Assembly: GCA_964506785.1 (NCBI GenBank)
Contig: CAZDME010000001.1
Span: forward strand, 1-61,085
From: an uncultured bacterium
Lineage (GTDB): Bacteria; CAZDME01; JAYEMH01
Direction of reading: 5' to 3'
Length of the DNA: 61,085 bases
Below are positions 1 to 38,755 of this stretch, piece after piece. Both the position numbers and the translations under genes were made by a program. The stretch's first letter is position 1; each line of letters begins with the position of its first letter. Below the pieces are notes generated by a model. It saw only the letters and a list, made by a program, of their open reading frames with translations, was not told where the DNA came from and did no database searches.

Positions 1-6
1 AATACC

Positions 7-95
7 TGTGGATTTGTGGATTCTTAAAAAACAGGCTAAAAAAACGAATATTATAGAAGGATAAGTTGTTAATAACAGTATAATAAATATCCACA
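7..95. promoter_or_regulatory. DnaA-box-like 9-mers downstream of dnaA
   Basis: TGTGGATTT (7-15) and TGTGGATTC (15-23) are 7/9 to TGTGGATAA. ATATCCACA (87-95) is 8/9 to TTATCCACA. Confidence 0.4.
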
Positions 96-114
96 AAACA
101 AACAACTAAAAAAA

Positions 115-1455
115 CTATTCATTATTAATTTTATTTTTTAATAAATCAACTAATTTTTGTAGATTTAAATCACTCTTTAATAAATGGTCAATTACGTTTA
201 CGGCATGTAACACTGTGGTATGGTCCCGTCCGCCGAAATACTCCCCTATTTCCGGGAGAGAACACTCGGTCAGCTGGCGGGTAAGAAACATAGCGACCTG
301 GCGGGGGAAAACCACTGTTTTTGTCCTCTTTTTTATTTTCATATCAGCAACGCTTAAATCAAAATACTCGCTAACTTTTCTCTGAATCAAATCGATAGAA
401 ATGTGTTTTTCCCCCTGGCTGTGAGAAAAAAGGTCTTTTAGTGTTTCTTCGGCCAGTTCAGTCGTTATCGGAGCCCCCACTAAACTGGCGTAAGCCACCA
501 GCCTGATTAAAGCGCCTTCCAATTCCCGGACATTAAAGCGAATTTTAGCTGCCAGAAAATTTGTTACCGCTTCGGGGATCGGCAGTGTTTCCTTTTCCGC
601 CTTCTTTCTCAAAATGGCAATTCGCGTTTCTAAATCAGGGGGTTGAATATCGGTAACCAAACCCCACTCAAAGCGCGAAATTAAGCGCTCTTCTAAATTA
701 GGAATTTCTTTTGGCGGAGAATCAGACGAAATAACAATTTGTTTATGTGCGTCGTAAAGGGTGTTAAAAGTGTGGAAAAATTCCTCCTGGGTGCTTTCTT
801 TACCAGATAGAAATTGAATATCATCCAATAGAAGAAGGTCAACGTTGCGGTATTTATTTCTAAACCTCAATGTAGTCTGGTTTTGAATAGAGTCGATCAA
901 CTGATTGGTAAATTTTTCGCAAGAGCCATAGAAAACACATAAATTCGGATTGGTTTTTTGAGCTAAATGGCCCACGGCTTGTAAAAGATGGGTTTTCCCC
1001 AGGCCAACGCCGCCATAGATAAAAAGAGGATTGTAGGCTTTACCCGGAGATTGTCCCACAGCTAAAGAGGCGGCATGGGCGAACCGGCTGCCGGGGCCAA
1101 CTACAAAATTTTCAAATTGGTATTTAGGATTCAGGTGGGTGTCTTCCCGGCTTAAAGAATTGGACCGGAGGGTATAGACCGGTTCTTTGTTCACAGAAGG
1201 CTCTTGGTTCGATTTTTTGATCGAAACCGAAACATGGCTTGTGGATAAACCACTTACCACGGAACAAACCTGCTCTAAATAGTGTTCCCTCACCCACTCC
1301 TCAATAAAAGAATTGGGGGCTTCCAAGACCAATTGAGAGTTATCGAGACTCAACGGCCTGAGGGGTTTAACCCATGTTTCAAAACTTTGCCGGGGGATAA
1401 TTTTTTCTAATTCAGACAAGGCTTGAGGCCACAGGGTATCGAGGGCGGAAGACAC
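115..1455 (-). CDS. dnaA: chromosomal replication initiator DnaA
   Basis: 446 aa. AAA+ Walker [12 protein letters not shown], Walker [11 protein letters not shown]-terminal DnaA-box-binding region ([11 protein letters not shown]). DnaA boxes on both sides. Confidence 0.97.
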
Positions 1456-1805
1456 AGGAAAACTCCTAACTATTTAAAACTAAGGGATTATATAGAAAAC
1501 CATCAGTTTGACCACAACAAATCCACAAATTATCTACAGATAACCTAAGGGTTTGAAATACTTAAAGTTGGAGAGGAAAAATGCTAAAACCTTCTCACCC
1601 TTAACCGAAGCGAAACACTAACCTTGGGGGGACGAAGAAATTACGGATATCTACAACCTCAATAAAATCAAGGAGTTATAAAAAACAAACCTGTCTATTT
1701 TCACTGTCCTCGAGAAAAAGTCCGTCTGCTCTGTTGAAACAAGGGTAAAGGGCTAAATTGTTTTATCCGGAGACTTCCCCACCTTGTCCAAAAAATACCC
1801 ACAGT

Positions 1806-1814
1806 TTATCCACA
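1806..1814 (+). promoter_or_regulatory. perfect DnaA box TTATCCACA
   Basis: Exact match to the consensus 9-mer, read directly. Confidence 0.8.
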
Positions 1815-1960
1815 TCCCCAAAAACCACCATAATTGGATACAGGTAAGAAAATTTTAACAAAAAAAATTTTTTTGTCAACTTTTTTTTGAAGTCTTTTAA
1901 ACAAAGAAGACTTCTAAAACTTTCGGTACGCCAAACAAGTGCGCGGGTAGACAGCCAAAA

Positions 1961-1976
1961 TGTTTCACGGGAAACA
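1961..1976. promoter_or_regulatory. parS-like site (15/16)
   Basis: TGTTTCACGGGAAACA, one mismatch to the palindrome TGTTTCACGTGAAACA found three times downstream. Confidence 0.65.
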
Positions 1977-1980
1977 GTCT

Positions 1981-2053
1981 GGCTCATAGCTGTTAGCTCT
2001 TGGTCGATAGTCAAAAAAACTCCATTCCTTTAACCATGAGCCATGAGCCAAAC
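1981..2053. repeat. family-A heptamer element (GCTCATA units, then reverse units)
   Basis: ggctcata gctgtta gctcttg gtcgata, then a spacer, then aaccatg agccatg agccaaa. Shares the 17-mer AACCATGAGCCATGAGC with 30838-30854. Confidence 0.8.
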
Positions 2054-2063
2054 AGGAAAGCCC

Positions 2064-2092
2064 TTGACAACCACCTCTAATTAACTTATAAT
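2064..2092 (+). promoter_or_regulatory. consensus sigma70-type promoter for rpmH operon
   Basis: TTGACA (2064-2069), 17-nt spacer, TATAAT (2087-2092). Confidence 0.8.
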
Positions 2093-2138
2093 CTCATAAT
2101 CTGATAATCCGAATAACCCAGTAACGGGAGAAAGCGCT

Positions 2139-2273
2139 TTGAAAAGGACTTTTCAACCATCAAAAATTAGCCGAAAGAGAACACATGGATTCCGCCGCCG
2201 CAAACAGACGAAGGGGGGGCGCAAGGTTTTAAATCGCCGACGGAAAAAAGGAAGAAAGCGCCTGGCGGCCTGA
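2139..2273 (+). CDS. rpmH: 50S ribosomal protein L34
   Basis: 45-codon ORF below the track cutoff. Hand translation [47 protein letters not shown] start, GGGAG at 2126-2130. Conserved rpmH-rnpA-yidD-yidC order. Confidence 0.85.
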
Positions 2274-2376
2274 TTTCCGAAAAAGAGCTGCCGTAAAAAG
2301 AGTAAAGGGCGGCTAAAAATTACACAGAGAGGTTAAAGGACGGAATCCTTAAGATATCATCGGGTGTAGATTTACG

Positions 2377-2781
2377 GTGAGTGAATTCAGACATACCTTT
2401 CCCAGGGAAGAAAAAATCCGAAAGAAAAAAGACAGGGACGCGCTTTTTAAAAAAGGGAAAGTTTGTTCCGGGTCTATCTTACAGCTTTTTTTTCTTCCCC
2501 GCGGCGATAATTTACGCAAGGCAGGCTTTGCTTTTAGCCGGGGGGTAACCCCGGCGACAAAACGCAATCGTCTGCGGCGGCTTCTTAGCGAAGCTTACCG
2601 GTTAAACAAGGAGAAGGTGGGTTTGGGGTATAATCTGCTTCTCAAGGTAAAAAAGACGGTTTCTGAGACATCAATGGCCCGTTTTGAAACGGAGTTTCTA
2701 ACCTTGGCCCGGAAAGCCGGGTTGCTCCGGAGCGCTAGGTTTGAGCCTGGTCAAAGACGGGAAAAAGAAAAGGCGGGGTAA
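2377..2781 (+). CDS. rnpA: ribonuclease P protein component
   Basis: 134 aa, basic, with RNR motif (ATKRNRLRRLLSEAYR). Sits between rpmH and yidD. Confidence 0.85.
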   Translation: MSEFRHTFPREEKIRKKKDRDALFKKGKVCSGSILQLFFLPRGDNLRKAGFAFSRGVTPATKRNRLRRLLSEAYRLNKEKVGLGYNLLLKVKKTVSETSMARFETEFLTLARKAGLLRSARFEPGQRREKEKAG

Positions 2782-2790
2782 ACCGCAGAT

Positions 2791-2806
2791 TGTTTCACGT
2801 GAAACA
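2791..2806. promoter_or_regulatory. parS site (perfect 16-bp palindrome)
   Basis: TGTTTCACGTGAAACA, matching the ParB-binding consensus TGTTNCACGTGAAACA. Confidence 0.85.
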
Positions 2807-2808
2807 GT

Positions 2809-2883
2809 GTAGCCGATAGCTCATCGGTCATGGCTCATAGCTAAAATTGGCTATTGGCTCGTAGCTTATGGTTGATAGCTAAT
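2809..2883. repeat. family-A heptamer array
   Basis: gtagccgata gctcatc ggtcatg gctcata gctaaaa ttggcta ttggctc gtagctt atggttg atagcta. Confidence 0.8.
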
Positions 2884-2894
2884 TAAGAAAAAAG

Positions 2895-3107
2895 ATGATA
2901 CAAGGGGTAGTACTGCTTATATTGCGCGTGTATAAAAAGGGGATATCCCCCTATCTGCCCCATCGCTGCCGTTTTTACCCTTCGTGTTCAGAGTATACCC
3001 GTCAAGCGATTAGTCGATATGGCTTATTACAGGGGATTTGGCTCGGAGGGTGGCGTCTTTTGCGCTGCGGGCCTTGGCATCCGGGTGGCTATGATCCGGT
3101 TAAATAG
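2895..3107 (+). CDS. yidD: membrane protein insertion efficiency factor YidD
   Basis: 70 aa. Signature ISPYLPHRCRFYPSCSEYTRQAISRYG. Confidence 0.9.
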   Translation: MIQGVVLLILRVYKKGISPYLPHRCRFYPSCSEYTRQAISRYGLLQGIWLGGWRLLRCGPWHPGGYDPVK

Positions 3108-3124
3108 CGCATCAAGAAGAGCCC

Positions 3125-3215
3125 GTAGATGATGGCTTCCATTAGCTGTTGGCTCAGAGTTCATCGCTCATGGCTAAAAGAAAACACCTTTTTTGCCATT
3201 AGCTAAGAGCCAGAA
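3125..3215. repeat. family-A heptamer array abutting parS
   Basis: gtagatg atggctt ccattag ctgttgg ctcagag ttcatcg ctcatgg ctaaaag, then gccatta gctaaga gccagaa immediately before parS. Confidence 0.75.
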
Positions 3216-3231
3216 TGTTTCACGTGAAACA
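3216..3231. promoter_or_regulatory. parS site (perfect)
   Basis: TGTTTCACGTGAAACA. Confidence 0.85.
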
Positions 3232-3329
3232 ATTTGGCGGCGGCACCTAGAATCCCATAAAAAAGTGGGTGACAAAAGGGCAAAAAAGCCCAAAAAAGCG
3301 AAAAGGACTGAAGAAAACAGGGGTAAATT

Positions 3330-4991
3330 ATGGAAAAAAGACTGCTATTAGCTATTGTTTTGTCGATTCTGGTTTTGGCTTCATTTCAGTATTATGCGGC
3401 AAAAATAGCCCCTCAGTCTGAACCGGGGCAGATAGAAACAAGAGAAAACAAAGCGGGCTTATCCCCTCAAATGACCACCGGGCCAACCGGCCATCCGGAC
3501 AAGCAGCTAACCGGGGGTGTTTCAGGGGAAACAATGCTTCCAGGGCAGGAAGCCTCTTTTCCGGTCATAGAAGCGAGGGAGTCTAAGGTAGAAACGAGTC
3601 TTTTTAAAGCGGCCATTAGTCTCAACGGGGCCGGAGTCGCCGGCTGGCAGCTCAAGGAATATAAAAATAAGGATGGCCAGCTGATCAATTTGTCCTGCCC
3701 CGAGAGGTTGGCCTCCAACCTTCCTCTATATATCCGTTGGGGATCGGTCTCTCCTTTAATCTTCCAGGGGAAGGAGTTGCTAAAATTGGGTTTTGAGCAG
3801 CCTCAAGGAGAGCTGTTTCTGCAAGCCCAGGCTGACCCCTGGAGGCTGGATAAGAAAATGGCCTTTTCCGACCAGGATTACCTCTTTTGGTTAGAACTTA
3901 GCTGGCAGAATCTTTCCTCAGAGACAAGAAAGCTGCCGGACTATTATCTGGTTTGTACCCCTGGTTTTGGGTTACAAGATAAAGAAAACCGGCAGTATGC
4001 TGAAGCCAAAGCCGGTTTTGTCCTTGGGGATACGCTGAAAGCGAAAAAATGGAAGATACACTCTTTAACCAGGAAGTTAATCAGAAGAAACGCCGAAACC
4101 GGTTCAATTACCCGTCTGGATAATGAGCTTCCCGGGATAGTCCGCTGGTTGGCCTATCGGGTCAAATATTTTACCATAATCATCAAGCCAGAGGAAGAGG
4201 CAAAAGGAATCCTTTTTTCCGGATTAGGCGAGGATGAAGCCCTCTGCCAGCTAAAAATGCCGGGAGAAGAAGTTCGCCCCGGAGAAACTTTTAATCAACG
4301 TTTTGCCGTTTATCTGGGGCCGGTAGATTATGATCAGCTTAAAAGAGCAAATCTGGGTTTAGAGGCAATTTTTGAGAGCGGCGGATTGGCTCCTTTGCGA
4401 AGATTGGTCATGGCTGTTCTTAAATTTTTCTATAAAATGGTAGGGAACTGGGGGGTGGCTATCATCCTTTTGACCATAGTTGCCAAGATTATTCTTCTTC
4501 CCCTGACACAAAAAAGCTTCCGGTCGATGGGGGAGATGCAGAAACTTCAGCCGCAGATAAACAGCCTGCGACAGGTCTATAAAGATAACCCGCAAAAACT
4601 GCAAAAAGAGATTATGGAGCTTTACCGCAGCCACAAGGTTAACCCCATGGGCGGCTGTTTTCCCATGCTTTTGCAAATGCCGGTTTTTATTGCTTTATTT
4701 ACCGCTTTAAGGAGCGCCATTGAGCTGCGACATGCCCCTTTTATCTTCTGGATAAAGGATCTCTCGGCCAAAGACCCCTTGTATGTTCTTCCTATTCTTA
4801 TGGGAGGGGTAATGGTTGCCCAGCAGAAAATGAGCCCGCAAGCCGATCCCCAGCAGGCTAAAATGGCCATGATTATGCCTATATTTTTCACCTTTCTTTT
4901 TATGAATTTTCCCAGCGGCCTGGTTTTATACTGGCTGGTCAATAGCTTTCTTTCTGTGGGGGAGCAGTGGTGGATAAAGAAAAAGAATTAA
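3330..4991 (+). CDS. yidC: membrane protein insertase YidC
   Basis: 553 aa. N-terminal TM helix, large periplasmic domain, C-terminal insertase core (GCFPMLLQMPVFIALF, PSGLVLYWLVNS). Confidence 0.93.
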   Translation: MEKRLLLAIVLSILVLASFQYYAAKIAPQSEPGQIETRENKAGLSPQMTTGPTGHPDKQLTGGVSGETMLPGQEASFPVIEARESKVETSLFKAAISLNGAGVAGWQLKEYKNKDGQLINLSCPERLASNLPLYIRWGSVSPLIFQGKELLKLGFEQPQGELFLQAQADPWRLDKKMAFSDQDYLFWLELSWQNLSSETRKLPDYYLVCTPGFGLQDKENRQYAEAKAGFVLGDTLKAKKWKIHSLTRKLIRRNAETGSITRLDNELPGIVRWLAYRVKYFTIIIKPEEEAKGILFSGLGEDEALCQLKMPGEEVRPGETFNQRFAVYLGPVDYDQLKRANLGLEAIFESGGLAPLRRLVMAVLKFFYKMVGNWGVAIILLTIVAKIILLPLTQKSFRSMGEMQKLQPQINSLRQVYKDNPQKLQKEIMELYRSHKVNPMGGCFPMLLQMPVFIALFTALRSAIELRHAPFIFWIKDLSAKDPLYVLPILMGGVMVAQQKMSPQADPQQAKMAMIMPIFFTFLFMNFPSGLVLYWLVNSFLSVGEQWWIKKKN

Positions 4992-4994
4992 ATT

Positions 4995-5057
4995 GACTCG
5001 TTGATTGTGGCTGATGGCTCATAGCTGATTGCTTCCGCCAAAAGAGCTATGAGCCAA
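4995..5057. repeat. family-A heptamer array abutting parS
   Basis: gactcgt tgattgt ggctgat ggctcat agctgat tgcttcc gccaaaa gagctat gagccaa. Confidence 0.75.
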
Positions 5058-5059
5058 AT

Positions 5060-5075
5060 TGTTTCACGTGAAACA
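5060..5075. promoter_or_regulatory. parS site (perfect)
   Basis: TGTTTCACGTGAAACA. Confidence 0.85.
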
Positions 5076-5077
5076 AT

Positions 5078-6487
5078 TTGGGAATGAGGGGTAAAGTGAG
5101 AAACTCCTATAGCGATACCATAGCTGCCATTGCCACGCCTTTAGGAGAGGGGGGTATTGGCATTGTCCGTTTGAGCGGCTCTCAGGCGGTATCTATTGCC
5201 GCCCGGATTTTCCGCTCGAGCCCCCGGCGAAATATTAATGAGTTACCCAGCCATAGCCTTCACTATGGGCAGGTGGTTTCCCGGACAAAGCCCATAGATG
5301 AAGGATTGCTGGCCATTATGAGGGCCCCCAATTCATATACCCGGGAAGATGTAGTTGAAATCCAGGCCCATGGCGGACCCATTCCTTTAGAGAAAATTCT
5401 CCGTTTGGTTATTGAGGAAGGTGCCCGGCCGGCTGAACCGGGAGAATTTACCCGGCGGGCTTTTCTTAACGGCCGGATGGACTTAGTCCAGGCTGAGGCG
5501 GTGGCCGATTTAATTCGGGCCCGGACAGAAGGCGCCTATGAAATTGCCCTGGGACAGCTTTCCGGCCGTTTTTCCGCGAAGGTAAAGGATTTACGGCAGC
5601 GGTTGATAAAGTGTTTAACCATAATCGAGGCAAGTATTGATTTCCCCGAGGAAAGCGGGTTGGGCCCGGGGAAATCGTTTCAGAAAACCCTTCGTCTTCT
5701 CGGTGACGAACTGCTTAAGCTGGAAGAAGGGGCGGAAAAAGGAAGAATCATCCGGGAAGGGATTAGGGCGGTTATTATCGGCCGGCCGAATGTGGGCAAA
5801 TCAAGTTTAATGAATGCCCTCTTAAAAGAAAAAAGGGTTATTGTTACCCATATACCAGGAACCACCCGCGATGTCGTTGAAGAAATAGTCAATATCGAGG
5901 GTATCCCTTTAAGGATTGCGGATACGGCCGGCTTGCGAAAAACCAGGAAGCTGATTGAAATTCAGGGTGTTGCCCAAAGCCGTTCTTATCTGGACAAGGC
6001 GGATTTAGTTATTATCGTTCTGGACGGGCACCAGAAACTGAAGAAAGAAGATTTGGATATTATAAAATTAGTCAAAGAGAAAGGGAAAAAAGCCATTGCG
6101 GCCGTCAATAAGAGCGATTTGCCGATTCGATTGGAAATGCCCCGGTTAAAGCGACATTTTCCCGCCGGGATGACTGTCCGGATTTCAGCCAAATGTCTTG
6201 CGGGGATTTCGAATTTCAACCGGAAAATCGCCCCCGCCCTGGGAATAAAAAAACCCGGGAACGGAAGCGAAAATATCTTAGCCAGCCGCTTAAGGCACCA
6301 GATTAGCTTGGGAAATGCCCGGAGTAATGTCCATAATGCCCTTCTGGCCTGGCAAAACGGACTATCTGCTGAGTTTATTGCCTTTGACCTTTGGCAGTCG
6401 GTTGAAGCCTTAGATGAAATCTTGGGGCTGAATTATAAAGAAGATTTATTGGATAAAATATTCCGAGAATTTTGCATCGGAAAATAA
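5078..6487 (+). CDS. mnmE: tRNA modification GTPase MnmE
   Basis: 469 aa. G-domain motifs GRPNVGKSSLMNAL, DTAGLR and NKSDL, and the C-terminal CIGK. Start uncertain (TTG 5078, ATG 5084 or GTG 5096). Confidence 0.92.
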   Translation: MGMRGKVRNSYSDTIAAIATPLGEGGIGIVRLSGSQAVSIAARIFRSSPRRNINELPSHSLHYGQVVSRTKPIDEGLLAIMRAPNSYTREDVVEIQAHGGPIPLEKILRLVIEEGARPAEPGEFTRRAFLNGRMDLVQAEAVADLIRARTEGAYEIALGQLSGRFSAKVKDLRQRLIKCLTIIEASIDFPEESGLGPGKSFQKTLRLLGDELLKLEEGAEKGRIIREGIRAVIIGRPNVGKSSLMNALLKEKRVIVTHIPGTTRDVVEEIVNIEGIPLRIADTAGLRKTRKLIEIQGVAQSRSYLDKADLVIIVLDGHQKLKKEDLDIIKLVKEKGKKAIAAVNKSDLPIRLEMPRLKRHFPAGMTVRISAKCLAGISNFNRKIAPALGIKKPGNGSENILASRLRHQISLGNARSNVHNALLAWQNGLSAEFIAFDLWQSVEALDEILGLNYKEDLLDKIFREFCIGK

Positions 6488-6490
6488 GCA

Positions 6491-6660
6491 AATTTAGACA
6501 TTTTTGAACAAGTCTGGACAATTTTGGATGCCTGAAATTGAGAAATATTTCTTGGAAGAAAGGTTTTTTCGACCCGAAGAAACTCGGGCGAGAGCAACGC
6601 TTAAAACGACAAAAATGGACATATTTTGGCATTTTTGTACATATTTGGACAATTACTGGC
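6491..6660 (+). repeat. 10-nt-phased TGGACA-like repeats (family D, two clusters)
   Basis: tttagacatt tttgaacaag tctggacaat tttggatgcc (6491-6530). aaatggacat attttggcat ttttgtacat atttggacaa ttactggcat (about 6613-6662). Confidence 0.7.
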
Positions 6661-6707
6661 ATGGTTTCCTGAGAATCTTTCTGTTCTTTGCATTTGCTGA
6701 AGTTGCC

Positions 6708-6757
6708 TGTGGATAACCTGGAGACATCTGTGGATAACTTAATACATTTGTGGACTG
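6708..6757 (-). promoter_or_regulatory. DnaA-box trio
   Basis: TGTGGATAA at 6708-6716 and 6729-6737 (both 9/9 as the reverse complement of TTATCCACA). TGTGGACTG at 6749-6757 (7/9). Box starts are spaced 21 and 20 nt apart. Confidence 0.75.
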
Positions 6758-6780
6758 GGGTAGGCAAGTCTCAACTTTTC

Positions 6781-6830
6781 TGGACAAATTTGGACACTTC
6801 TGGACAAATTTGGACACTTTTGAAGACATA
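6781..6830 (+). repeat. tandem 2 x 20-bp (4 x 10-bp) TGGACA repeat
   Basis: tggacaaatt tggacacttc tggacaaatt tggacacttt, followed by a degenerate fifth unit tgaagacata. Lies immediately upstream of parA. Confidence 0.85.
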
Positions 6831-6847
6831 AAAGGGAGTTTTTTGTT

Positions 6848-7612
6848 GTGTCAAAAGTTTTTGCGGTAGCCAATCAAAAAGGGGGCGTTGGCAAAACCAC
6901 CACCGTTTTAGGCTTGGCGGCTTGTTTTGCTTTTGCCGGGAAAAAGGTTTTGGTGGTTGATTTTGACCCTCAGGGTCAGGCGACTTCTGGCCTGGGGCTG
7001 GAAAAGGATAAAATTTCCCGGACAGTTTATTCCTGTCTTTTTGAAATAACGCGGCCTTTGGCCCTGGCGCAGGAGACAAAGGTAAAAAACCTCAAAATTA
7101 TCCCTTCTAATATTGAGCTGGCCGGGGCTGAGGTGGAGTTGGTTGAAGTGCCGCAGAGGGAGGAACGCCTGCGGCGTTTAATCGAAAAAATCCGCCAGCG
7201 CTTTGACTTTGTTTTAATTGACTGCCCGCCATCTCTGGGGATATTGACGGTCAATGCTCTGGTGGCCGCCGATAGTGTTATTATTCCCGTCCAGTGCGAA
7301 TATTATGCCTTGGAAGGATTGAGCCAATTGGTAAACTCCATCAACCTGATCCAGGCCGGGCTTAATCCGCATCTATCAATCGAGGGAGTCGTTTTAACCA
7401 TGCATGATGTGCGCATTAACCTTTCCGCACAGGTAATAGATGAAGTTAGAAACTTTTTTCAGGAGAAGGTTTTTAAAGCGGTTGTTCCGCGCAATGTCCG
7501 CCTCGCCGAAGCACCCAGTTTTGGCCAGCCAATTATTCAATATGACCTCCGCTCAGCCGGGGCCGAAGCTTACCTGCGCCTGGCCAAGGAAATTTTAAAA
7601 AGATACAGATAA
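6848..7612 (+). CDS. parA: ParA/Soj chromosome partitioning ATPase
   Basis: 254 aa. GTG start, deviant Walker A KGGVGKTT, followed by parB. Confidence 0.93.
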   Translation: MSKVFAVANQKGGVGKTTTVLGLAACFAFAGKKVLVVDFDPQGQATSGLGLEKDKISRTVYSCLFEITRPLALAQETKVKNLKIIPSNIELAGAEVELVEVPQREERLRRLIEKIRQRFDFVLIDCPPSLGILTVNALVAADSVIIPVQCEYYALEGLSQLVNSINLIQAGLNPHLSIEGVVLTMHDVRINLSAQVIDEVRNFFQEKVFKAVVPRNVRLAEAPSFGQPIIQYDLRSAGAEAYLRLAKEILKRYR

Positions 7613-7665
7613 AAATTTACAGTATACAGATAACAATTAATGATTTAAGTTAACAGTTTACAGTT
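7603..7665 (+). repeat. family-C heptamer array (ACAG-type)
   Basis: atacaga taaaaat ttacagt atacaga taacaat taatgat ttaagtt aacagtt tacagtt. It starts inside the last codons of parA and contains the parA stop codon. Confidence 0.75.
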
Positions 7666-7684
7666 CGTGTTTAACCATAAACTG

Positions 7685-7792
7685 AAATAACGAGCGAACG
7701 ATATAACGGGAAACACGATAACGAGATAACGGACAACGGAATAACGTGATAACGAGCGATGAGATAACGTGATAACGGGGGACGTGATAACG
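7685..7792 (+). repeat. family-B array (nGATAACG units, 7-8-nt period), largest copy
   Basis: At least 13 consecutive units ending in ACG: gaaataacg agcgaacg atataacg ggaaacacg ataacg agataacg gacaacg gaataacg tgataacg ... tgataacg ggggacg tgataacg. Confidence 0.9.
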
Positions 7793-7810
7793 AAGTCGAG
7801 GAGGAAAAAC

Positions 7811-8653
7811 ATGGCTAGACAGGTTTTAGGACGGGGATTAAGTGCGCTTATCTCCCGAGAAAGCGCCGAAAAAAGGGAGGAGGTTCGCCAATTAAATATT
7901 AAAGATGTGGTTGCCAGTCAGTTTCAACCGCGCCAGGATTTTGACTCCAGACAACTTAATGAGTTGGTGACTTCCATTAAAGAAAAAGGGGTAATTCAGC
8001 CGATTCTAGTCCGTCCTCTGGGTGACAAATATGAATTAGTGGCCGGGGAACGGCGATGGCGGGCTACCAAAGAACTGGGCTGGAAAAAAATTCCGGCTAT
8101 GTTGAAAAATGTTTCCGATACCGAGGCCTTGGAGTTAACCTTAATTGAAAATCTGCAAAGGCAGGATTTAAATCCTATTGAGGAAGCCAAGGCCTATGAA
8201 CGTTTGCTCAAGGACTTTAAGCTCACCCAGGAAAAATTAGCCAGGCAAATTGGTAAAGAGCGGGTTTCTGTGGCTAACACCTTGAGACTCCTTAAATTGC
8301 CCCAGGCGATTAAAGAGGAGATTTCCCGGGGACGCCTTTCGGCGGGTCAGGCTCGGCCCTTGCTGTCTTTAAAGAATTCAGCTAAGCAAGAGGAGCTTGG
8401 AAAAAAAATTATAAAAAAGGGGTTGTCGGCCAGAGAAGTAGAACAAGTCGTTCAAAAAATGCTTTCTTCGGTGCGTTTTCAGCCGCGGCGGTTTAAAAGG
8501 AACACCCAGCTCCTGGAAATTGAGGAGAAATTGCGTCATATCTTTGGCACCCAGGTACGCCTTAGACAAAAGGGAAATAAAGGAAAGATTGAAATAGAAT
8601 TCTATTCTGCCGAGGATTTGGATAGGATTCTGGAAGTAATCAGACCGAAGTAG
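7811..8653 (+). CDS. parB: ParB/Spo0J partition protein
   Basis: ORF 7769-8653 trimmed to ATG 7811 (AGGAGG at 7799-7804). N-terminus MARQVLGRGLSALI, ParB box GERRWRA, HTH region. Confidence 0.92.
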   Translation: MARQVLGRGLSALISRESAEKREEVRQLNIKDVVASQFQPRQDFDSRQLNELVTSIKEKGVIQPILVRPLGDKYELVAGERRWRATKELGWKKIPAMLKNVSDTEALELTLIENLQRQDLNPIEEAKAYERLLKDFKLTQEKLARQIGKERVSVANTLRLLKLPQAIKEEISRGRLSAGQARPLLSLKNSAKQEELGKKIIKKGLSAREVEQVVQKMLSSVRFQPRRFKRNTQLLEIEEKLRHIFGTQVRLRQKGNKGKIEIEFYSAEDLDRILEVIRPK

Positions 8654-8661
8654 AAAATAGG

Positions 8662-9615
8662 ATGAATTTATTAACGGTGCCCGCGAGTAGTTTAAAAAAA
8701 GAACATCCGGTAAAAATACCAATTCCTGATTGGCTGGTGAAAGAGGTTAGCTCCAAGCGTAATTTGGGTAGTCTGCCCAAAATTTTAAAGGAGGCTGGTC
8801 TTCGTACTGTTTGCCAGGCGGCCCGCTGTCCCAATATCGGCGAATGTTTTTCCCGGGGGACGGCCACCTTTTTAATTCTGGGCGATATTTGCCGCCGCCA
8901 ATGTCGTTTTTGTAGCATAAAAAAAAGGCCTTCCGGGTATTTACCCGTAGATAAGGATGAACCGGCACGGATCGCTCAAACAGTTCAGCAGCTCGGGCTT
9001 GGATATGTGGTGGTTACCTCAGTCAGCCGTGATGACCTGCCTGACGGAGGAGCCGAACATTTTGCCCGGACAATCAGAAAGATAAAAAGCCGCACCCCGG
9101 GGATAACGGTAGAGGTTTTAATCCCTGATTTTTCTGGCCATCTCGAGGCATTAAAAACGGTGGTTAAAGAAAGGCCCGAGGTAATTAATCATAATTTAGA
9201 GACGGTCGAATCTCTTTATCCGAAGGTTCGCCCGCAGGCGGATTATAAGCGCTCACTGGAGTTACTTAGAAGGATAAAGGGTCTGGATGCCCGGATTGTT
9301 ACCAAGTCAGGTTTAATCCTGGGGTTAGGAGAAGAAAAAGAAGAAATCCAAAAAGCCCTTAATGATTTACAGCAGGCTCAGGCGGATATTTTAACCTTAG
9401 GTCAGTATTTACAGCCGACGGTCAGGGAACTGGCTGTAGAGAAATATCTTACCCGGCAGGAATTTGCTTTTTGGCAGAAAGCAGCCGAGGCATTGGGTTT
9501 TCTTTTTGTCGCTTCGGGAAACCTGGTTCGCAGCTCATACAGGGCAGAAGAAGCCTATAAAAGAGCGTTATCCCGTTCGTCGTTATCTCGTTTTCAGGGT
9601 AACGATATAACGTGA
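8662..9615 (+). CDS. lipA: lipoyl synthase
   Basis: 317 aa. Cys clusters CQAARCPNIGEC and radical-SAM CRRQCRFC. The last ~15 codons are encoded by a family-B array. Confidence 0.93.
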   Translation: MNLLTVPASSLKKEHPVKIPIPDWLVKEVSSKRNLGSLPKILKEAGLRTVCQAARCPNIGECFSRGTATFLILGDICRRQCRFCSIKKRPSGYLPVDKDEPARIAQTVQQLGLGYVVVTSVSRDDLPDGGAEHFARTIRKIKSRTPGITVEVLIPDFSGHLEALKTVVKERPEVINHNLETVESLYPKVRPQADYKRSLELLRRIKGLDARIVTKSGLILGLGEEKEEIQKALNDLQQAQADILTLGQYLQPTVRELAVEKYLTRQEFAFWQKAAEALGFLFVASGNLVRSSYRAEEAYKRALSRSSLSRFQGNDIT

Positions 9616-28904: not shown

Positions 28905-29756
28905 ATGGCCATAACAGAAAAGAAACTCAAGGAATTAGAGAAAAAATGCAATCAGATTCGCTGTGAAGTCTTGAAGATGCTTAACCGTGCTCGTTCCGGG
29001 CACATTGGCGGTTCACTTTCCTGTATTGAATTGATTGTTGCTCTTTATTACCACCTCATGCGCCATCATCCCAAGGATCCCGATTGGCCCGGACGGGACC
29101 GTTTTCATCTTTCCAAGGGGCATGCGGCTCCCACCTGGTATGCGGTGCTGGCCGATTTAGGTTATTTTTCTAAAGAAGAACTAAAAAGCCTGCGGTCTCT
29201 GGGCAGTATCTTACAGGGACATCCGGATATGACGCGTACTCCCGGGGTAGAAATGACCAGTGGTTCTTTGGGACAGGGATTATCAGTCGCCATGGGTATG
29301 GCTTTAGCCGCCAAATTAGACCGGAAGGATTCCCGGATCTATGTATTATTAGGTGACGGAGAAATACAGGAGGGCCAAATCTGGGAAGCGGCTATGAGTG
29401 CCGGACATTATAAACTGGATAATCTTTCCGCTTTCGTTGATTATAACAAACTGCAGATAGACGGTAAACTTGCCGAGATTATTGATATCGAACCTTTAAA
29501 GGACAAGTGGCGTTCTTTTAATTGGGAGGTTTTCGAAATAGATGGGCATGACATAAGGGCGATTGTTTCGGCCTGCGAGAAGGCCAAGAAGGTGAAAGGC
29601 CGGCCAACAATGATTATTGCCCATACGGTAAAGGGCAAAGGAATCAGCTTTATGGAAGATGTGGTCGATTATCATGGAGTTGTCCCGACGGATGAAGAAT
29701 GTGCCTGCGCTCTTGAAGAGTTGAAAGATAAAAAAGATAAAAAGGATAAAGATTAA
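28905..29756 (+). CDS. transketolase, N-terminal (TPP-binding) subunit
   Basis: 283 aa. Motifs GHIGGSLS and GDGEIQEGQIWEA. Confidence 0.93.
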   Translation: MAITEKKLKELEKKCNQIRCEVLKMLNRARSGHIGGSLSCIELIVALYYHLMRHHPKDPDWPGRDRFHLSKGHAAPTWYAVLADLGYFSKEELKSLRSLGSILQGHPDMTRTPGVEMTSGSLGQGLSVAMGMALAAKLDRKDSRIYVLLGDGEIQEGQIWEAAMSAGHYKLDNLSAFVDYNKLQIDGKLAEIIDIEPLKDKWRSFNWEVFEIDGHDIRAIVSACEKAKKVKGRPTMIIAHTVKGKGISFMEDVVDYHGVVPTDEECACALEELKDKKDKKDKD

Positions 29757-29810
29757 ATTAGGGAGTGGATGCGGGATATTTCTTAAAAAGGTAAAAATAA
29801 AGAGGAAAGG

Positions 29811-30788
29811 ATGAATAAAAAAATGGAATTTATCTCCTGCCGCGATATTTATGCATCGACGCTTATTGATTTAGGAAAGACCAATAAAGATATTGTTGTT
29901 CTTGATGCCGATTTGGCTAAATCTACCCGCACCTTAAAATTTGGGAAAGTTTTTCCTGATCGGTTTTTTGACTTAGGTGTGGCTGAACAAAATATGATGG
30001 GGGTAGCGGCTGGTTTAGCGGCTTCCGGCAAAACAGCCTTCGCCAGCTCTTTTGCTATGTTTGCCTCGGGCCGGGCCTGGGAGCAAATTCGCAATACCAT
30101 AGCTTATTCTAACCTTAATGTAAAAATTTTTGTTACCCACGGAGGCATATCCGTTGGCGGCGATGGTTCCAGCCACCAATCCTTAGAAGATATCGCCTTA
30201 ATGCGGGTTTTGCCGCAAATGAGGGTACTTGTTCCTTTAGACGGTTATGAAACGGAAAAAGCCGTCCGTCTGGCCGCCAAATCTCCCGGACCTTTCTATA
30301 TCAGGGTCAGCCGGGAGAAGGTGCCGCAATTGACCAAAAAAGGGGATAAGTTCATTTTGGGGAAAAGCAGTTTACTTCATCCTGGAGGAGATGTGACCAT
30401 TATTGCCTATGGGTTAATGGCCTTCGAGGGTTTAAAGGCAGAGAAAATTTTAGCCCAGGAAGGTATTAGTGTCCGCCTCATTAATATGTCAACTATAAAA
30501 CCCATTGATGAGGAGGCAATTCTCCAGGCCGCCGAAGAGACCGGATTAATTGTTACCGCCGAGGAGCATTCAATAATTGGCGGTTTGGGAAGCGCGGTGG
30601 CTGAGTTTCTATCAGAAAAAAATCCCACCCCGGTCATTCGTATCGGCACCCGGGATAGATTTGGCCAGTCCGGCGCGCCGCGGGATCTTTTTGCCGAATA
30701 TCATTTACTGGCCAAGGATATCGTTGCCGCCGTAAAAAAAGGATTGAAAATCAAAACTTCCGCCAAAAAGAGCGGCGTAGAGGCTTAG
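29811..30788 (+). CDS. transketolase, C-terminal (pyrimidine-binding) subunit
   Basis: 325 aa. FDLGVAEQNMMGVAAGLA. Follows the N-terminal subunit. Confidence 0.93.
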   Translation: MNKKMEFISCRDIYASTLIDLGKTNKDIVVLDADLAKSTRTLKFGKVFPDRFFDLGVAEQNMMGVAAGLAASGKTAFASSFAMFASGRAWEQIRNTIAYSNLNVKIFVTHGGISVGGDGSSHQSLEDIALMRVLPQMRVLVPLDGYETEKAVRLAAKSPGPFYIRVSREKVPQLTKKGDKFILGKSSLLHPGGDVTIIAYGLMAFEGLKAEKILAQEGISVRLINMSTIKPIDEEAILQAAEETGLIVTAEEHSIIGGLGSAVAEFLSEKNPTPVIRIGTRDRFGQSGAPRDLFAEYHLLAKDIVAAVKKGLKIKTSAKKSGVEA

Positions 30789-30865
30789 CTGATTGCTCAT
30801 AGCTCTTAGTGGATAACTAACTAATCTTTTTTCGTCTAACCATGAGCCATGAGCAAAGAGCAAAC
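30789..30865. repeat. family-A heptamer element, homologous to 1981-2053
   Basis: ctgattgctcatagctcttagtgg, then a spacer, then taaccatgagccatgagcaaagagcaaac. Confidence 0.8.
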
Positions 30866-30885
30866 AGCCAGGGGGAGTTAGGAGA

Positions 30886-30920
30886 CAAACTGTAAACTGT
30901 CCACTGTACACTGTTAACTG
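30886..30920 (-). repeat. family-C heptamer array, inverted orientation (units ending in CTG)
   Basis: caaactg taaactg tccactg tacactg ttaactg. This is the reverse complement of the CAG-type units at 19451-19492. Confidence 0.88.
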
Positions 30921-30932
30921 GAAACTTAACCC

Positions 30933-31457
30933 ATGTCCATCAAATACAGCCTAAGGCTTCTTAATATTATTACCGCGGTGGTTCTTTTAATTTTCTCTTC
31001 CTTTATGATTATTAAACTGAACAAAGCTGCCAATACCATAGAAACATTGGTTTTCCTAAAGGATGATTTAAGCAAGGAGGAGATTGAAGGGTTAAAAATG
31101 CGCCTCAAGGCCTTTAAAGGGATAAAAACAATAAAATTTTCTCATCCCGATGAAACTCTCAAAATGTGGACAAAAACCATAGAGAGAAAAAAACTTTTAG
31201 AAATTATTGATACAAACCCATTTCCGCCTCTTTTCCGAATCCAACTAAAAAAAGGAAAAAGCCTGAGAAGCCTTTACCGGATGAGGACCACCCTCGAACA
31301 AATTTCCGGGATCAAGAAAGTTGAGTATGGCGGAAGGCGGACGGAAGAGGTAATCAAGCGGACCCAGAGATATCTTTTTGCCTTTATTGTTGCCTTTTTT
31401 GCCGCTTTAATAAATATTTTAGACCATGTTTTTATCACCTATTATACGCGGAAGTAG
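30933..31457 (+). CDS. FtsX-like protein reduced to TM1-extracellular domain-TM2
   Basis: 174 aa. TM helix, an FtsX-ECD-like region (VFLKDDLSKEEIEGLKMRL...NPFPP...GIKKVEY), a second TM helix, then a stop. TM3 and TM4 are absent. Confidence 0.55.
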   Translation: MSIKYSLRLLNIITAVVLLIFSSFMIIKLNKAANTIETLVFLKDDLSKEEIEGLKMRLKAFKGIKTIKFSHPDETLKMWTKTIERKKLLEIIDTNPFPPLFRIQLKKGKSLRSLYRMRTTLEQISGIKKVEYGGRRTEEVIKRTQRYLFAFIVAFFAALINILDHVFITYYTRK

Positions 31458-31488
31458 AAAAAAACGGGCACTCTCCGTTTTTCATAAA

Positions 31489-32661
31489 ATGAAAAGCTGC
31501 TTGTTCTATTGTCTAATTATATTTGCAGGTTTGTTTTTTGATTTCCCTTTTCTTTATGCCGCCGATAAGGTCCGAGACCCCGGGGGGCAGGTCTCGCACA
31601 AAGACATTATTGAAAAGAAAAAGAATCTAGGCACCCTGCAAAAGAAGATGGAGGAATATGAAAGGAAAAAAAGACGGGCGCAGGGGAAAGAAAAGGTGGT
31701 AACAAGGGACTTAAAAAAAATTAGCGCTGACCTTAAAGCCCGCCAGAAAGAAATATCTATCTATGCTTGGAATTTAGGGAAAAATAAGAGAGAAGAGGAA
31801 TTATTACTGGCTTCTTTCCAAAAAATAGCTGATAAAAAACGGCAATTGACCGAACAGTTAATTAAGGAGGTAAAAATTAGATTCAAAGAAAGCCTCATCC
31901 CCCAGTTTATTGCCTTCCCCTCTGATTTAGGAAGTTTAACCATTCAAGATGAGCTTGATTATCTATTTGACTCCTCTATCGTTTCTTTCGGCCAAAACCT
32001 GAACCAAAAACTGAGTAACAAAGAAGAAGAAAAAGAAAAGCTGGAAAGATACCGCGATATAGAACTTACCTATAAAAAAATTGCCGAGGAAAAGGAGGAA
32101 AAAGCTAAAAGCCTTCATAAGAAAAAGAAAAAGCTTTTAACCCGCTACCAGAAGGAAAAAAAGGAACACGATAGGAAGATTAAGGAATTCAAGGAGCAGA
32201 TGTTTTCCTTGGAACAAATGATTAAAGCTCTTGAGAAGACGCAGCGGCTGACTCGGGGTTTTCGCGGCGGTTATTTCCGGAAAAGTAAAGGGAAACTATT
32301 TATGCCGGTAGATGGCCAGATTCTTAAGGTCCGTTATGGGAAAAGCACCAATATCTATAAAGGGATAATGATAAAAGCCCCCCGGGGAAAAGGAGTAGTT
32401 TGTGTGGCCGATGGGAAGGTGATGTATGGAGATTGGTTCCGGGGGTTTGGCAATATTCTCATCATTGATCATGGCGGCGGCTATTCAACCCTGTATGCCC
32501 ATCTGGAGGAGACGATGGTTGAGAAAGACGATCTGGTAAAGGAAGGACAGGTTATCGCTGCGGTAGGCGATACCGGTTCGTTAACGACTGAACCCAGGCT
32601 TTATTTTGAAATCCGCCGCTATGGCGAGTCTTTGAATCCTTTGGAATGGCTTAAAAAATAA
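31489..32661 (+). CDS. EnvC-like coiled-coil protein with a degenerate LytM (M23) domain
   Basis: Trimmed to ATG 31489 (signal-like MKSCLFYCLIIFAGLFF). Long coiled coil. The M23 fold lacks the catalytic residues (KGIMIKAP in place of HxGID, RLYFEI in place of HLHFE). Confidence 0.8.
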   Translation: MKSCLFYCLIIFAGLFFDFPFLYAADKVRDPGGQVSHKDIIEKKKNLGTLQKKMEEYERKKRRAQGKEKVVTRDLKKISADLKARQKEISIYAWNLGKNKREEELLLASFQKIADKKRQLTEQLIKEVKIRFKESLIPQFIAFPSDLGSLTIQDELDYLFDSSIVSFGQNLNQKLSNKEEEKEKLERYRDIELTYKKIAEEKEEKAKSLHKKKKKLLTRYQKEKKEHDRKIKEFKEQMFSLEQMIKALEKTQRLTRGFRGGYFRKSKGKLFMPVDGQILKVRYGKSTNIYKGIMIKAPRGKGVVCVADGKVMYGDWFRGFGNILIIDHGGGYSTLYAHLEETMVEKDDLVKEGQVIAAVGDTGSLTTEPRLYFEIRRYGESLNPLEWLKK

Positions 32662-32665
32662 ATAC

Positions 32666-32708
32666 CGTTATCCCGTTGTTCGTTATTTCGTCAACGAGAT
32701 AACGGGAT
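32666..32708. repeat. family-B inverted arrays
   Basis: cgttatc ccgttgtt cgttattt cgtc, then aacg agataacg ggata. Confidence 0.8.
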
Positions 32709-32774
32709 ATTTCAATGCCGTTTCAATGCGGGTTTGAAATTTGAGTTTGGGATTATTAGCTTGGAATTTGTCTT
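32709..32774 (+). repeat. 11-nt duplication plus TTTGnnn heptamers
   Basis: tttcaatgccg tttcaatgcgg, then tttgaaa tttgagt ttgggat tattagc ttggaat ttgtctt. Confidence 0.6.
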
Positions 32775-37120: not shown

Positions 37121-38755
37121 ATGAATAAAGATTTGATTTTTTATGTAATCGGCGGTTTGGGATTGTTTATCTACGGTATTCACCTGATGGGCATCGGTTT
37201 GCAAAAGGCGGCGGCGAATCGGATGCGAAGAATCTTAGGATCTTTAACCAGAAATGCCTTCACCGGAGTCTTGGTGGGCACGGGAATAACGGCCATCATT
37301 CAAAGCAGCAGCGCCACCACTGTCATGTTAGTTGGTTTTGTTAATGCCGGCCTGATGACTTTGAAACAATCCCTGGGCGTAATTTTAGGAGCAAATATTG
37401 GGACCACTATTACCGCCCAGCTTATTGCCTTCAAACTAACCGACTATGCCCTGCCGCTCATTGGGCTGGGCATGTTGACTATGCTTTTTGCCAAAAAGAA
37501 AACCCACAAGTCTTTTGGAGAATTTATGTTGGGTTTTGGTATTTTATTTTTGGGCTTAAAATTTCTGACCCAAAGCGTCAAACCCTTAGGGTCTCTCCCC
37601 CAGGTAAGAGAAGTCTTTATTTCATTCAGCACCAATCCCTTTTTGGGCATATTGGCCGGGGCAATTGTTACCGCTCTGGTTCAAAGCAGCAGTGTTACCA
37701 CTGGTATTGTTTTAGCTTTAGCCGTGGGTGGCTTGATTGATTTAAACGGGGCAATTTATGTTATCTTAGGCTGTAACATCGGTACCTGCATTACCGCTTT
37801 GATTGCCAGTATCGGGACAAGCATCTCGGCTCGTCGGACAGCTTTAGCTCACGTGATTTTTAACGTTGTAGGGATACTGATATTTCTACCGTTTTTATCC
37901 CAATTCAGCCGTCTCATCAGCCTGACTTCGACTAATGTCATGCGCCAATGCGCTAATGCTCATACGGTTTTCAATGTGGGTATAACCTTAATATTTCTTC
38001 CTCTGGTTGGTCTTTTTGCCCGGATTATCCCCCGTCTTATTCCGGGGAGAGAAGTGGAAATCGAATTTGGGCCTAAGTATCTGGAGAGGCATCTTTTGAA
38101 TACTCCATCTCTGGCTTTGCGGGTAGCTACAGAAGAAATCGTCCGCACCTTGAAAATGACCCGCTTAATGGTTAACCAAAGCATGCAGGGGTTTTTTCAT
38201 GACGACGCCCGGGCTTTAGTTAAGGTAGAAAGAGGCGAAGAGGCCGTTGATAATCTGCAGGAAGCAGTGACGGATTATTTAATGGAGTTGATGCAAAGAG
38301 AGCTGAACGAAGAAGAGTCGCGAAAAATTCCGGCTTTGCTTCACAACATAAATGATGTGGAACGTATCGGCGACCACGCGGAAAATTTAGCCGAACTGGC
38401 CGAGAGAAAAATTGAGTGTAAACTCCCCTTTTCTTCAGAGGCAATTAAGGAATTGCATGGGATTCATCATGAATTGGAGAAGATGACCGAAGCAACAATC
38501 CAGGCCTTAGAGCGGAATGATTTAAAAAAAGCCGAAGAGGTTTTGGAAAATGAAGAGCTTATTAACCGCCTCCGCGATAAATTAAAAGAAAATCATATCA
38601 GCCGCCTGGAAGAAAATAAATGTTTGGTTTTGTCAGGGATTGTTTTTTTGGACACTATCAGTAATTTTGAAAAAATTGCTGACCATCTGACCAATATTGT
38701 TCAGGCGGTTGCCGACGCTTTACAATGGGAAAGAAAAAAAACAGAAATGCGATAA
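37121..38755 (+). CDS. Na/Pi cotransporter family protein with PhoU-like domain
   Basis: 544 aa. Duplicated QSSSATT / QSSSVTT motifs and C-terminal PhoU-like repeats. The TAA stop lies inside a gcgaTAAcg unit. Confidence 0.9.
   Translation: MNKDLIFYVIGGLGLFIYGIHLMGIGLQKAAANRMRRILGSLTRNAFTGVLVGTGITAIIQSSSATTVMLVGFVNAGLMTLKQSLGVILGANIGTTITAQLIAFKLTDYALPLIGLGMLTMLFAKKKTHKSFGEFMLGFGILFLGLKFLTQSVKPLGSLPQVREVFISFSTNPFLGILAGAIVTALVQSSSVTTGIVLALAVGGLIDLNGAIYVILGCNIGTCITALIASIGTSISARRTALAHVIFNVVGILIFLPFLSQFSRLISLTSTNVMRQCANAHTVFNVGITLIFLPLVGLFARIIPRLIPGREVEIEFGPKYLERHLLNTPSLALRVATEEIVRTLKMTRLMVNQSMQGFFHDDARALVKVERGEEAVDNLQEAVTDYLMELMQRELNEEESRKIPALLHNINDVERIGDHAENLAELAERKIECKLPFSSEAIKELHGIHHELEKMTEATIQALERNDLKKAEEVLENEELINRLRDKLKENHISRLEENKCLVLSGIVFLDTISNFEKIADHLTNIVQAVADALQWERKKTEMR

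Follow-up and report, generated by a model that had tools for sequence, protein, structure and literature searches.

Here, we describe a 360-nt spacer between mnmE and parA of an uncultured bacterium in which consensus DnaA boxes lie among arrays of 10-bp repeats, an arrangement that recurs directly before parAB in related genomes and that most likely serves as a regulatory or DnaA-buffering site. The window analyzed, 61,085 nt in length, is the entire contig C1 (CAZDME010000001.1) of a metagenome-assembled genome (G000; 1.38 Mb in 112 contigs), whose close ParB relatives are labelled Candidatus Ratteibacteria and whose remoter MnmE and DnaA relatives are labelled Omnitrophota. On balance, and with slightly better than even confidence, we favor the reading that this spacer (hereafter the gap) is a non-origin, origin-proximal DnaA-box cluster placed before parAB, and that a DnaA complex on its boxes and arrays would gate parAB and buffer DnaA.

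DnaA boxes and 10-bp arrays between mnmE and parA

An earlier reading of the window, made from the letters alone (the original prediction), had described two perfect DnaA boxes and a third matching at 7 of 9 positions, set about two helical turns apart, and a check of the sequence bore this out (Table 1). The whole assembly contains 15 perfect copies of TTATCCACA and 65 TTWTNCACA sites, and the boxes at 6708 and 6729 form its sole pair of consensus boxes within 60 bp. The boxes are interleaved with array-like units, the ACA of which (6726 and 6746) is in register with the 10-bp lattice of the right array (6786-6816). Like non-origin DnaA-box clusters such as P. aeruginosa oriCII, those of B. 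subtilis and E. coli datA, this is an intergenic group of consensus boxes outside the origin core (two perfect and one 7/9 here; 2-5 in relatives), in an origin-proximal position by genes of the mnmE, gidAB and parAB set. In all lineages compared, as in the window (6708-6740), the strong boxes have the extended form TGTGGATAAC(C/T)T, as does the origin core (TGTGTATAACTC); this form may be a longer recognition sequence for the DnaA of this lineage.

Three clusters of repeats with a 10-nt period had likewise been predicted, and three arrays of four or five units are indeed present. The left array begins 3 nt past the mnmE stop codon, and the right array stops 6 nt short of the ribosome-binding site of parA and 21 nt short of its start codon. 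Tandem Repeats Finder assigns a period of 10 to both outer arrays (6489-6528 for the left one) and, at 6778-6819, finds 2.1 exact copies of a 20-bp repeat. The tandem duplication of 2 x 20 bp that had been noticed here is therefore real and exact, in register at 6778-6817 and continuing to 6819, whereas at 6781-6820, where it had been placed, only 19 of 20 positions agree.

Across the 1.38 Mb, TGGACA-N4-TGGACA is confined to this gap, as are runs of at least three T..ACA units at an exact 10-bp period, and shuffled genomes yield 0-2 matches to these patterns. With a profile of 70 array units, the six best tandem two-unit matches in the genome all fall inside the gap. The boxes and 10-bp repeats of the gap are thus far from chance.

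Table 1. Coordinates of the mnmE-parA gap, its boxes and arrays, and related features (window positions unless another genome or locus is named)
Feature	Position	Strand	Details
mnmE-parA gap	6488-6847		360 nt
Perfect DnaA box 1	6708-6716	minus	TTATCCACA on the minus strand, TGTGGATAA read on the plus strand
Perfect DnaA box 2	6729-6737	minus	21 bp (two helical turns) from box 1
Degenerate DnaA box 3	6749-6757	minus	TGTGGACTG, 7/9, 20 bp from box 2
20-21-bp tandem repeat	6707-6754	plus	2.3 copies (Tandem Repeats Finder); each copy a strong box plus an array-like ..ACA unit
Left array (A1)	6491-6530	plus	four 10-bp units: AATTTAGACA, TTTTTGAACA, AGTCTGGACA, ATTTTGGATG
Middle array (A2)	6612-6661	plus	five 10-bp units: AAAATGGACA, TATTTTGGCA, TTTTTGTACA, TATTTGGACA, ATTACTGGCA
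Right array (A3)	6777-6826	plus	five 10-bp units: TTTCTGGACA, AATTTGGACA, CTTCTGGACA, AATTTGGACA, CTTTTGAAGA
mnmE	5078-6487	plus	
parA ribosome-binding site	6832-6838	plus	AAGGGAG
parA start codon	6848-6850	plus	GTG
dnaA	115-1455	minus	
Partial dnaN-dnaA spacer	1-114		TGTGGATTTGTGGATTC at 7-23, ATATCCACA at 87-95; box array of the probable oriC core
dnaN-dnaA spacer, other copies	L011 2102-2311; L189 11345-11555; L190 2748-2958; L191 11375-11565		
dnaA-rpmH spacer	1456-2140		second DnaA-box cluster
Hairpin repeat sites	L011 9299-9410; L177 3408-3510; L189 gap; L011 4690-4790		

The left end of the contig reads dnaA, rpmH, rnpA, yidD, yidC, mnmE, gap, parA and parB, with rpmH, rnpA, yidD, yidC and mnmE all on the plus strand and a spacer of 683 nt between dnaA and rpmH. 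The product of parA is a standard chromosomal ParA of 254 aa without an N-terminal DNA-binding domain, and that of parB is a standard helix-turn-helix ParB. As had been predicted, the gap is non-coding: an Rfam scan of positions 1-9000 matched no family, gap included, and its open reading frames are not conserved, since its length varies from ~200 to 617 nt among relatives. A small open reading frame (6504-6716) or an RNA gene inside the gap was considered and rejected as not conserved. The absence of mnmG and rsmG from between mnmE and parA was confirmed as well. The mnmG gene is found on contig C7 of the same genome (3866-5038), away from the mnmE-parA neighborhood and with no DnaA box in the 900 nt upstream of it, and a search for rsmG (GidB family) returned nothing above the family cut-off in the three whole genomes of the family (G000-G002). 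The database copy of MnmE has 463 aa against 469 aa counted from the first TTG (window 5078-5095), so the gene probably begins 18 nt further downstream than 5078.

Conservation of the module and the protein on its arrays

Two genomes of the same family were available for comparison (G001 and G002), and further lineages were added through homologues of MnmE and DnaA with 59-78% identity. Seven lineages share the plan of the gap (G000, G001/L180, G002/L182, L177, L179, L181 and L189, in which L180 and L182 are near-duplicates of G001 and G002): an array of 10-bp units right behind mnmE, 2-5 TGTGGATAA boxes in one orientation relative to parA and often 20-21 bp apart, and a second array, with the final array stopping 17-32 nt short of the parA start. 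In all lineages the units of an array, 4-6 in number, repeat at exactly 10 bp and share one orientation, and the flavor of the unit varies by lineage (GGACA vs GCACA or ACACA) with the strong boxes staying TGTGGATAA. A BLAST search with the gap against 40 relatives returned only its own genome and one 39-nt chance match, with no DNA similarity in G001 or G002, and across the seven lineages the DNA of the gap can no longer be aligned. Repeat-hairpin insertions and duplications of a 45-bp box-plus-hairpin unit vary between lineages and are located between the conserved parts of the gap; as these come and go, the boxes and arrays are the parts that are kept. The hairpin repeat, with arms CCCCGTTAGAGA ... 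TCTCTAACGGGG, is inserted in the gap in the G001, L177 and L189 lineages and is also found behind rpmH, and G001 and L177 have the 45-bp units in tandem, with a small hairpin and one perfect DnaA box in each.

Remoter MnmE loci (metagenome contigs, at most 50% identity) lack both parA and perfect boxes downstream, and in the complete Omnitrophota genome L191 parA stands directly behind jag, with a 22-nt spacer and without the module, so the module is specific to this family and an invention at that level. A ParA-based search of genome contigs was dominated by Bacilli at ~60% identity and is uninformative for this clade. Judged from these genomes, the module is fixed in Candidatus Ratteibacteria directly before parAB. 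It is hardly credible that the arrays are neutral tandem-repeat expansions that happen to adjoin DnaA boxes: short tandem ATAACG octamer units do occur at 7685-7800, where they run up to a start codon, and the duplication in the right array is recent, but the array unit type is found only in this gap, and position, orientation and period are kept in seven lineages despite flanking proteins as diverged as those above.

The 70 units have the consensus WWTTTRNACA, and the last nine unit positions, read forward, share T2, W3, T4 and A7-C8-A9 with the DnaA consensus TTWTNCACA, matching it at a mean of 6.7 of 9 positions vs ~3.6 by chance. Several units of L181 and G001 reach 8-9 of 9 at exact 10-bp spacing. 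In G000, and also in G001 and L181, the strong boxes are interleaved with array units along one 10-bp lattice; since they share this single lattice, one helix face would be used throughout. The suggestion of the original prediction that the phasing reflects cooperative binding on one face therefore holds up, given this common lattice and the retention of the module in all seven lineages. We consider it a tentative proposal, somewhat short of an even chance, that the WWTTTRNACA units are low-affinity, cooperatively filled DnaA sites.

The closest model is the origin of E. coli, in which low-affinity sites form two arrays of four (R5M-tau2-I1-I2 and C3-C2-I3-C1), evenly spaced on one face and in one orientation; these are filled from an adjacent strong site and are at least 2 bases off consensus and hard to recognize by sequence (PMC4451416). 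The arrays described here are alike in having 4-5 evenly spaced 9-mers on one helix face, uniform in orientation within an array and beside high-affinity boxes, and unlike in that they do not belong to an origin that has an unwinding element and that they bracket the whole spacer. Several further points weigh against reading the units as DnaA sites. Their period is 10 bp (a 1-bp spacer) rather than 11 bp, and they are opposed to the strong boxes, the better-matching reading of the units being forward and all strong boxes reverse, whereas the strong site of E. coli nucleates an array of its own orientation; no high-affinity box of like orientation is in place here for nucleation. Also unlike the E. 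coli arrays, the units have no conserved C at box position 6 (the consensus C in 16 of 70, G in 35) and have a strictly kept purine at position 5 (64 of 70), a requirement that is not known for DnaA. Besides the positions that anchor the unit, enrichment is limited to T2 and W3, and sites with at most two mismatches in the G000 gap number 11, not above the 7.8 +/- 2.2 of shuffles, in a test that has low power in A/T-rich DNA.

The strongest rival is a separate array-binding protein. The boxes would be real and the arrays would be operators of a different sequence-specific protein, a head-to-tail oligomer acting with DnaA on parAB or on the architecture of the origin region, with a winged-helix OmpR/PhoB-type response regulator or some other factor as candidate; we judge this unlikely, though deserving of serious weight. 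CtrA, MtrA and ArcA bind at origins, where their sites are interspersed with DnaA boxes, and so are precedents for regulator sites there, and OmpR half-sites such as TTTTGAAACA are similar to array units like TTTTTGAACA. Sites of the OmpR/PhoB family have been described as repeats of 7 bp separated by 4 bp and occupied head to tail (PMC4832192), and direct repeats at 10-11 bp made of a conserved hexamer and an A/T-rich spacer, as in the arrays, are the signature of that family. Position 5, strictly a purine, and position 6, which varies, depart from the DnaA consensus, the flavor of the unit depends on lineage in a way that the boxes do not, and each family genome has one or two OmpR-family regulators. 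Set against this, the single such regulator of G000 is PhoB-like (248 bits, best match TIGR02154), is encoded at C51:7924-8607, on another contig and together with its kinase, and lacks an array of this kind upstream of its own gene; with essentially no other tandem profile match in the genome, a phosphate-type regulator would be left with a single target. Unlike the operators of that family, moreover, the module has no dedicated regulator, or any DNA-binding gene, linked to it in any lineage. The array binder could be DnaA, at weak sites, or another protein.

Position of the replication origin

The original prediction had offered the gap as the true oriC or as half of a bipartite origin. Origins were assessed by manual criteria published by Weigel (bioRxiv 10.1101/2025.08.05.668638). 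These ask for a stress-destabilized unwinding element of 20-50 bp, for a reverse-oriented consensus box (TGTGNAWAA) some two helical turns to the right of that element, for a gene on the left that is transcribed leftward, for an array of boxes, and for DnaA-trios between the element and the proximal box. Location at the GC-skew minimum was considered as well, and melting was computed with our own re-implementation of the Benham stress-induced duplex destabilization (SIDD) model at sigma -0.06. The dnaN-dnaA spacer has all five features in G001, L189, L190 and the Omnitrophota genome L191, including a leftward-transcribed dnaN. Its core consists of an A/T-rich tract by dnaN, TAG/TAA-type trios, a G cluster, TGTGGATTT or TGTGGATAA, and further boxes, with the (NAN)n trios arranged as TAGTAGTATTATTAA-GGG-T-TGTGGATTT and variants; it is Bacillus-like and is kept from Ratteibacteria to another Omnitrophota genome. 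By SIDD, this spacer opens first in G001 and in the partial copy of G000, and less clearly in L189. Contig C1 starts inside the spacer, so that the unwinding tract and trios lie past the contig end and the 3' part of dnaN is on contig C55. In relatives, the DciA gene (for an ancestral helicase-loading factor) stands directly behind dnaN and before gyrB (L189 12774-13079; L191 12660-12962), giving an origin cassette dnaA-dnaN-dciA-gyrB.

In the dnaA-rpmH spacer, a perfect box (1806-1814) is followed by a predicted unwinding tract (1845-1905) and, near 1961, by a parS-like site; the boxes of this spacer probably assist the origin, as in Bacillus. Twin DnaA boxes in the same spacer, AAATCCACA-AA-TTATCTACA (window 1517-1538; L011 ~3718-3740), have a 2-bp spacer and an 11-bp period, lie ~65-80 bp upstream of the dnaA start and are kept in G001 and L189; they are probably a site of dnaA autoregulation.

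The gap has a different character. No (NAN)n DnaA-trios stand beside any strong box in the seven gaps, and trios were rejected as a component of the module. On the plus strand its boxes are reverse, with the nearest A/T array 47-48 bp to the left of box 1 and not ~20 bp; seen from the minus strand, where parA is on the left, the strong boxes have the forward orientation. Transcription of mnmE runs toward the element and not away from it, and the boxes are misoriented relative to parA, the sole neighbor transcribed outward. Predicted melting of the gap is weak in G000 (minimum 4.6-5.4 kcal/mol), the middle array being among its most easily melted stretches, yet weakly so (~5.4-6 kcal/mol), and reaches p <= 0.27 in G001. 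Within 2.5 kb around the gap, melting is predicted most strongly at 7590-7653, a stretch that takes in the 3' end of parA and the first part of the parA-parB spacer and lies immediately ahead of the ATAACG octamers extending to parB.

A computation of cumulative GC skew had been proposed as a check on the origin. On contig C5 of G001 (52.7 kb), the minimum falls at ~32,750 with a plateau at 29,500-32,750 (dnaN to rpmH) and the gap at 37,298-37,703, hence 4.5-7 kb apart; the window has its own minimum in its first 2 kb. The minimum thus appears to map off the gap, but at the limit of resolution, because the skew switch coincides with the switch in gene strand. Two observations temper the exclusion of the gap: skew of this kind cannot truly resolve 5 kb, and the right array of L189 is a moderate predicted melting site (p 0.87).

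It is an outside possibility that the gap is a functional second origin, or the distal part of a multipartite one, like Pseudomonas oriC2, with its A/T-rich phased arrays as the unwinding element. This reading draws on the synteny and ~5-kb spacing seen in the oriC1/oriC2 pair of Pseudomonas and Halomonas (bioRxiv 10.1101/2025.08.05.668638), on the gap being the densest perfect-box cluster of the assembly, on the arrays being its most meltable part (with a moderate signal in L189 and a weak one in G001), and on the equivalent position of E. coli oriC by gidA. Each of the orientation, trio and spacing results above speaks against it, as do the lack of strong melting in G000 (at least 4.6 kcal/mol), the skew minimum, the complete core at dnaN-dnaA and the placing of the right array so close to the ribosome-binding site and start codon of parA. 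The primary origin is placed at dnaN-dnaA because that spacer has the expected features and the gap does not, and because the skew turns there or at dnaA-rpmH. Replication most likely starts in the dnaN-dnaA spacer, ~6.5 kb from the gap, and the gap is probably a third, non-origin DnaA-box cluster near the origin; of the first interpretation, the link to DnaA stands and the true origin is unlikely. For annotation, the example warns that oriC need not coincide with the densest cluster of boxes near dnaA, and predictors that count boxes would probably mislabel this gap.

Proposed control of parAB and comparison with known systems

In the mechanism that we favor, DnaA would fill the 2-5 high-affinity boxes, two helical turns apart and in one direction, and the complex would then spread along one helix face onto the flanking 10-bp-phased WWTTTRNACA units as an oligomer of DnaA-ATP, or of DnaA with a partner. 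The resulting nucleoprotein complex would span the spacer from the mnmE stop codon to the parA ribosome-binding site and, by spanning it, would gate transcription into parAB, whether this is read-through from the rpmH-mnmE genes or comes from a weak local promoter. The supply of ParA and ParB would thereby be tied to the level or nucleotide state of DnaA, and the complex would buffer free DnaA ~6.5 kb from the origin. Binding by DnaA and filling of the arrays are predictions here, as is the way in which parAB would respond, be it by repression or activation.

A scan for sigma-70 promoters gave no good match between the right array and the parA start codon, so the parA promoter or its 5' leader would overlap the module. 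No intrinsic terminator was found after mnmE, where there is only an imperfect hairpin (6570-6590) without a T-run; with neither a terminator nor a convincing promoter past the right array, any parA transcript would start in or cross the complex. The same region bears on the improbable reading that the arrays need no dedicated protein, and that phased T-tracts and pyrimidine-purine steps give curvature or anisotropic flexibility, or that overlapping weak promoters (TNNACA as -35-like and CATATT/GACAAT as -10-like elements) shape parA transcription. Every lineage has T/A tracts of 3-5 nt at 10-bp intervals, the scanned region holds four -35/-10-like pairs, three of them from array units, against 1.3 +/- 1.2 in shuffles, and G001 has TGGACA-16-GATAAT just upstream of its right array; however, the promoter matches are weak (9/12), and an ACA that hardly varies (61-65 of 70 units), together with a 10-bp register held exactly across diverged spacers, points to base-specific recognition.

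The original prediction had also named a promoter regulated by DnaA or by ParA/ParB. Regulation by DnaA fits best and matches the syntenic oriCII of Pseudomonas, whereas a ParB operator or half-parS was rejected, as the units do not fit the parS half-site and parS-type sites lie elsewhere. Nor does the module resemble the centromeres and operators of plasmid par systems (R1 parC, TP228 parH, the omega sites of pSM19035), in which a small adaptor protein from the par operon reads short direct-repeat arrays upstream of it; here arrays are present, but the operon encodes the standard chromosomal ParA and ParB described above.

In a bolder form, which we regard as unlikely, the arrays and interdigitated boxes would make up one continuous lattice of ~340 bp, either DnaA-ATP as a filament on 10-bp-spaced sites of a new class or DnaA with an array-binding partner, and would act as a cell-cycle gate on parAB that opens only after initiation lowers DnaA-ATP. 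Such a gate, if real, would hard-wire chromosome segregation to replication initiation in a lineage with a reduced genome. A more radical variant of the lattice would be an origin that fires as a second one.

The nearest known system is that of Pseudomonas and Halomonas, where oriC1 lies between rpmH and dnaA and oriC2 (oriCII) ~5 kb away between mnmE and gidA (bioRxiv 10.1101/2025.08.05.668638). The oriCII of P. aeruginosa is dispensable for chromosome replication and binds DnaA cooperatively in vitro (PMC13438810; bioRxiv 10.1101/2025.08.05.668638); it raises gidAB-parAB transcription, and ParB falls when its boxes are deleted (PMC13438810). Pseudomonas oriC2 can also drive plasmid replication. 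The likeness extends to a mirror-image order of dnaN-dnaA, spacer, rpmH-rnpA-yidC-mnmE, DnaA-box cluster and (gidAB) parAB, to a distance of ~5 kb from the dnaA-rpmH spacer, and to several consensus boxes mostly in one orientation. In the bacterium described here, by contrast, mnmG is elsewhere, rsmG was not found and the cluster directly abuts parA; the DUE/R1/IHF/L-DOR plan (DUE, DNA unwinding element; IHF, integration host factor) is absent, and the main origin is probably at dnaN-dnaA and not at rpmH-dnaA. The distance from boxes to promoter is tens of bp compared with 130 bp in Pseudomonas, which suggests occlusion here where Pseudomonas has activation. As the lineages are unrelated, the likeness would reflect convergence or ancient synteny and not sequence homology.

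Six DnaA-box clusters outside oriC in B. subtilis bind DnaA, regulate their neighbors and jointly restrain initiation, and they interact strongly in genetic terms with soj/spo0J (PMC3245932). Among them is DBC[thdF-jag], located between thdF (mnmE) and jag and stably bound by DnaA. That cluster and the gap are both origin-proximal, intergenic and adjoining mnmE, but the Bacillus cluster lies upstream of thdF and not between mnmE and parA, and no phased 10-bp arrays have been described for it.

DnaA-box clusters beside mnmE and parAB genes are thus known, and the 10-bp WWTTTRNACA arrays have no described counterpart; from the sequence comparisons made here, what appears new is the direct abutment on parA and 10-bp arrays that are opposed to the boxes and bracket the spacer. 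The module is an unusually clean natural test case for the recruitment of DnaA oligomers, outside an origin, to evenly spaced sites of low affinity, and bears also on the rules of spacing and orientation that are tolerated (10 vs 11 bp, opposed orientation). Clusters by mnmE, gidA and parAB matter in two model bacteria, restraining initiation in Bacillus and, as oriCII, driving gidAB-parAB in Pseudomonas. The same arrangement in an uncultured Omnitrophota-related lineage, in a Ratteibacteria version that lacks mnmG and rsmG and is pressed against parA, suggests a recurrent way to couple initiation and segregation.

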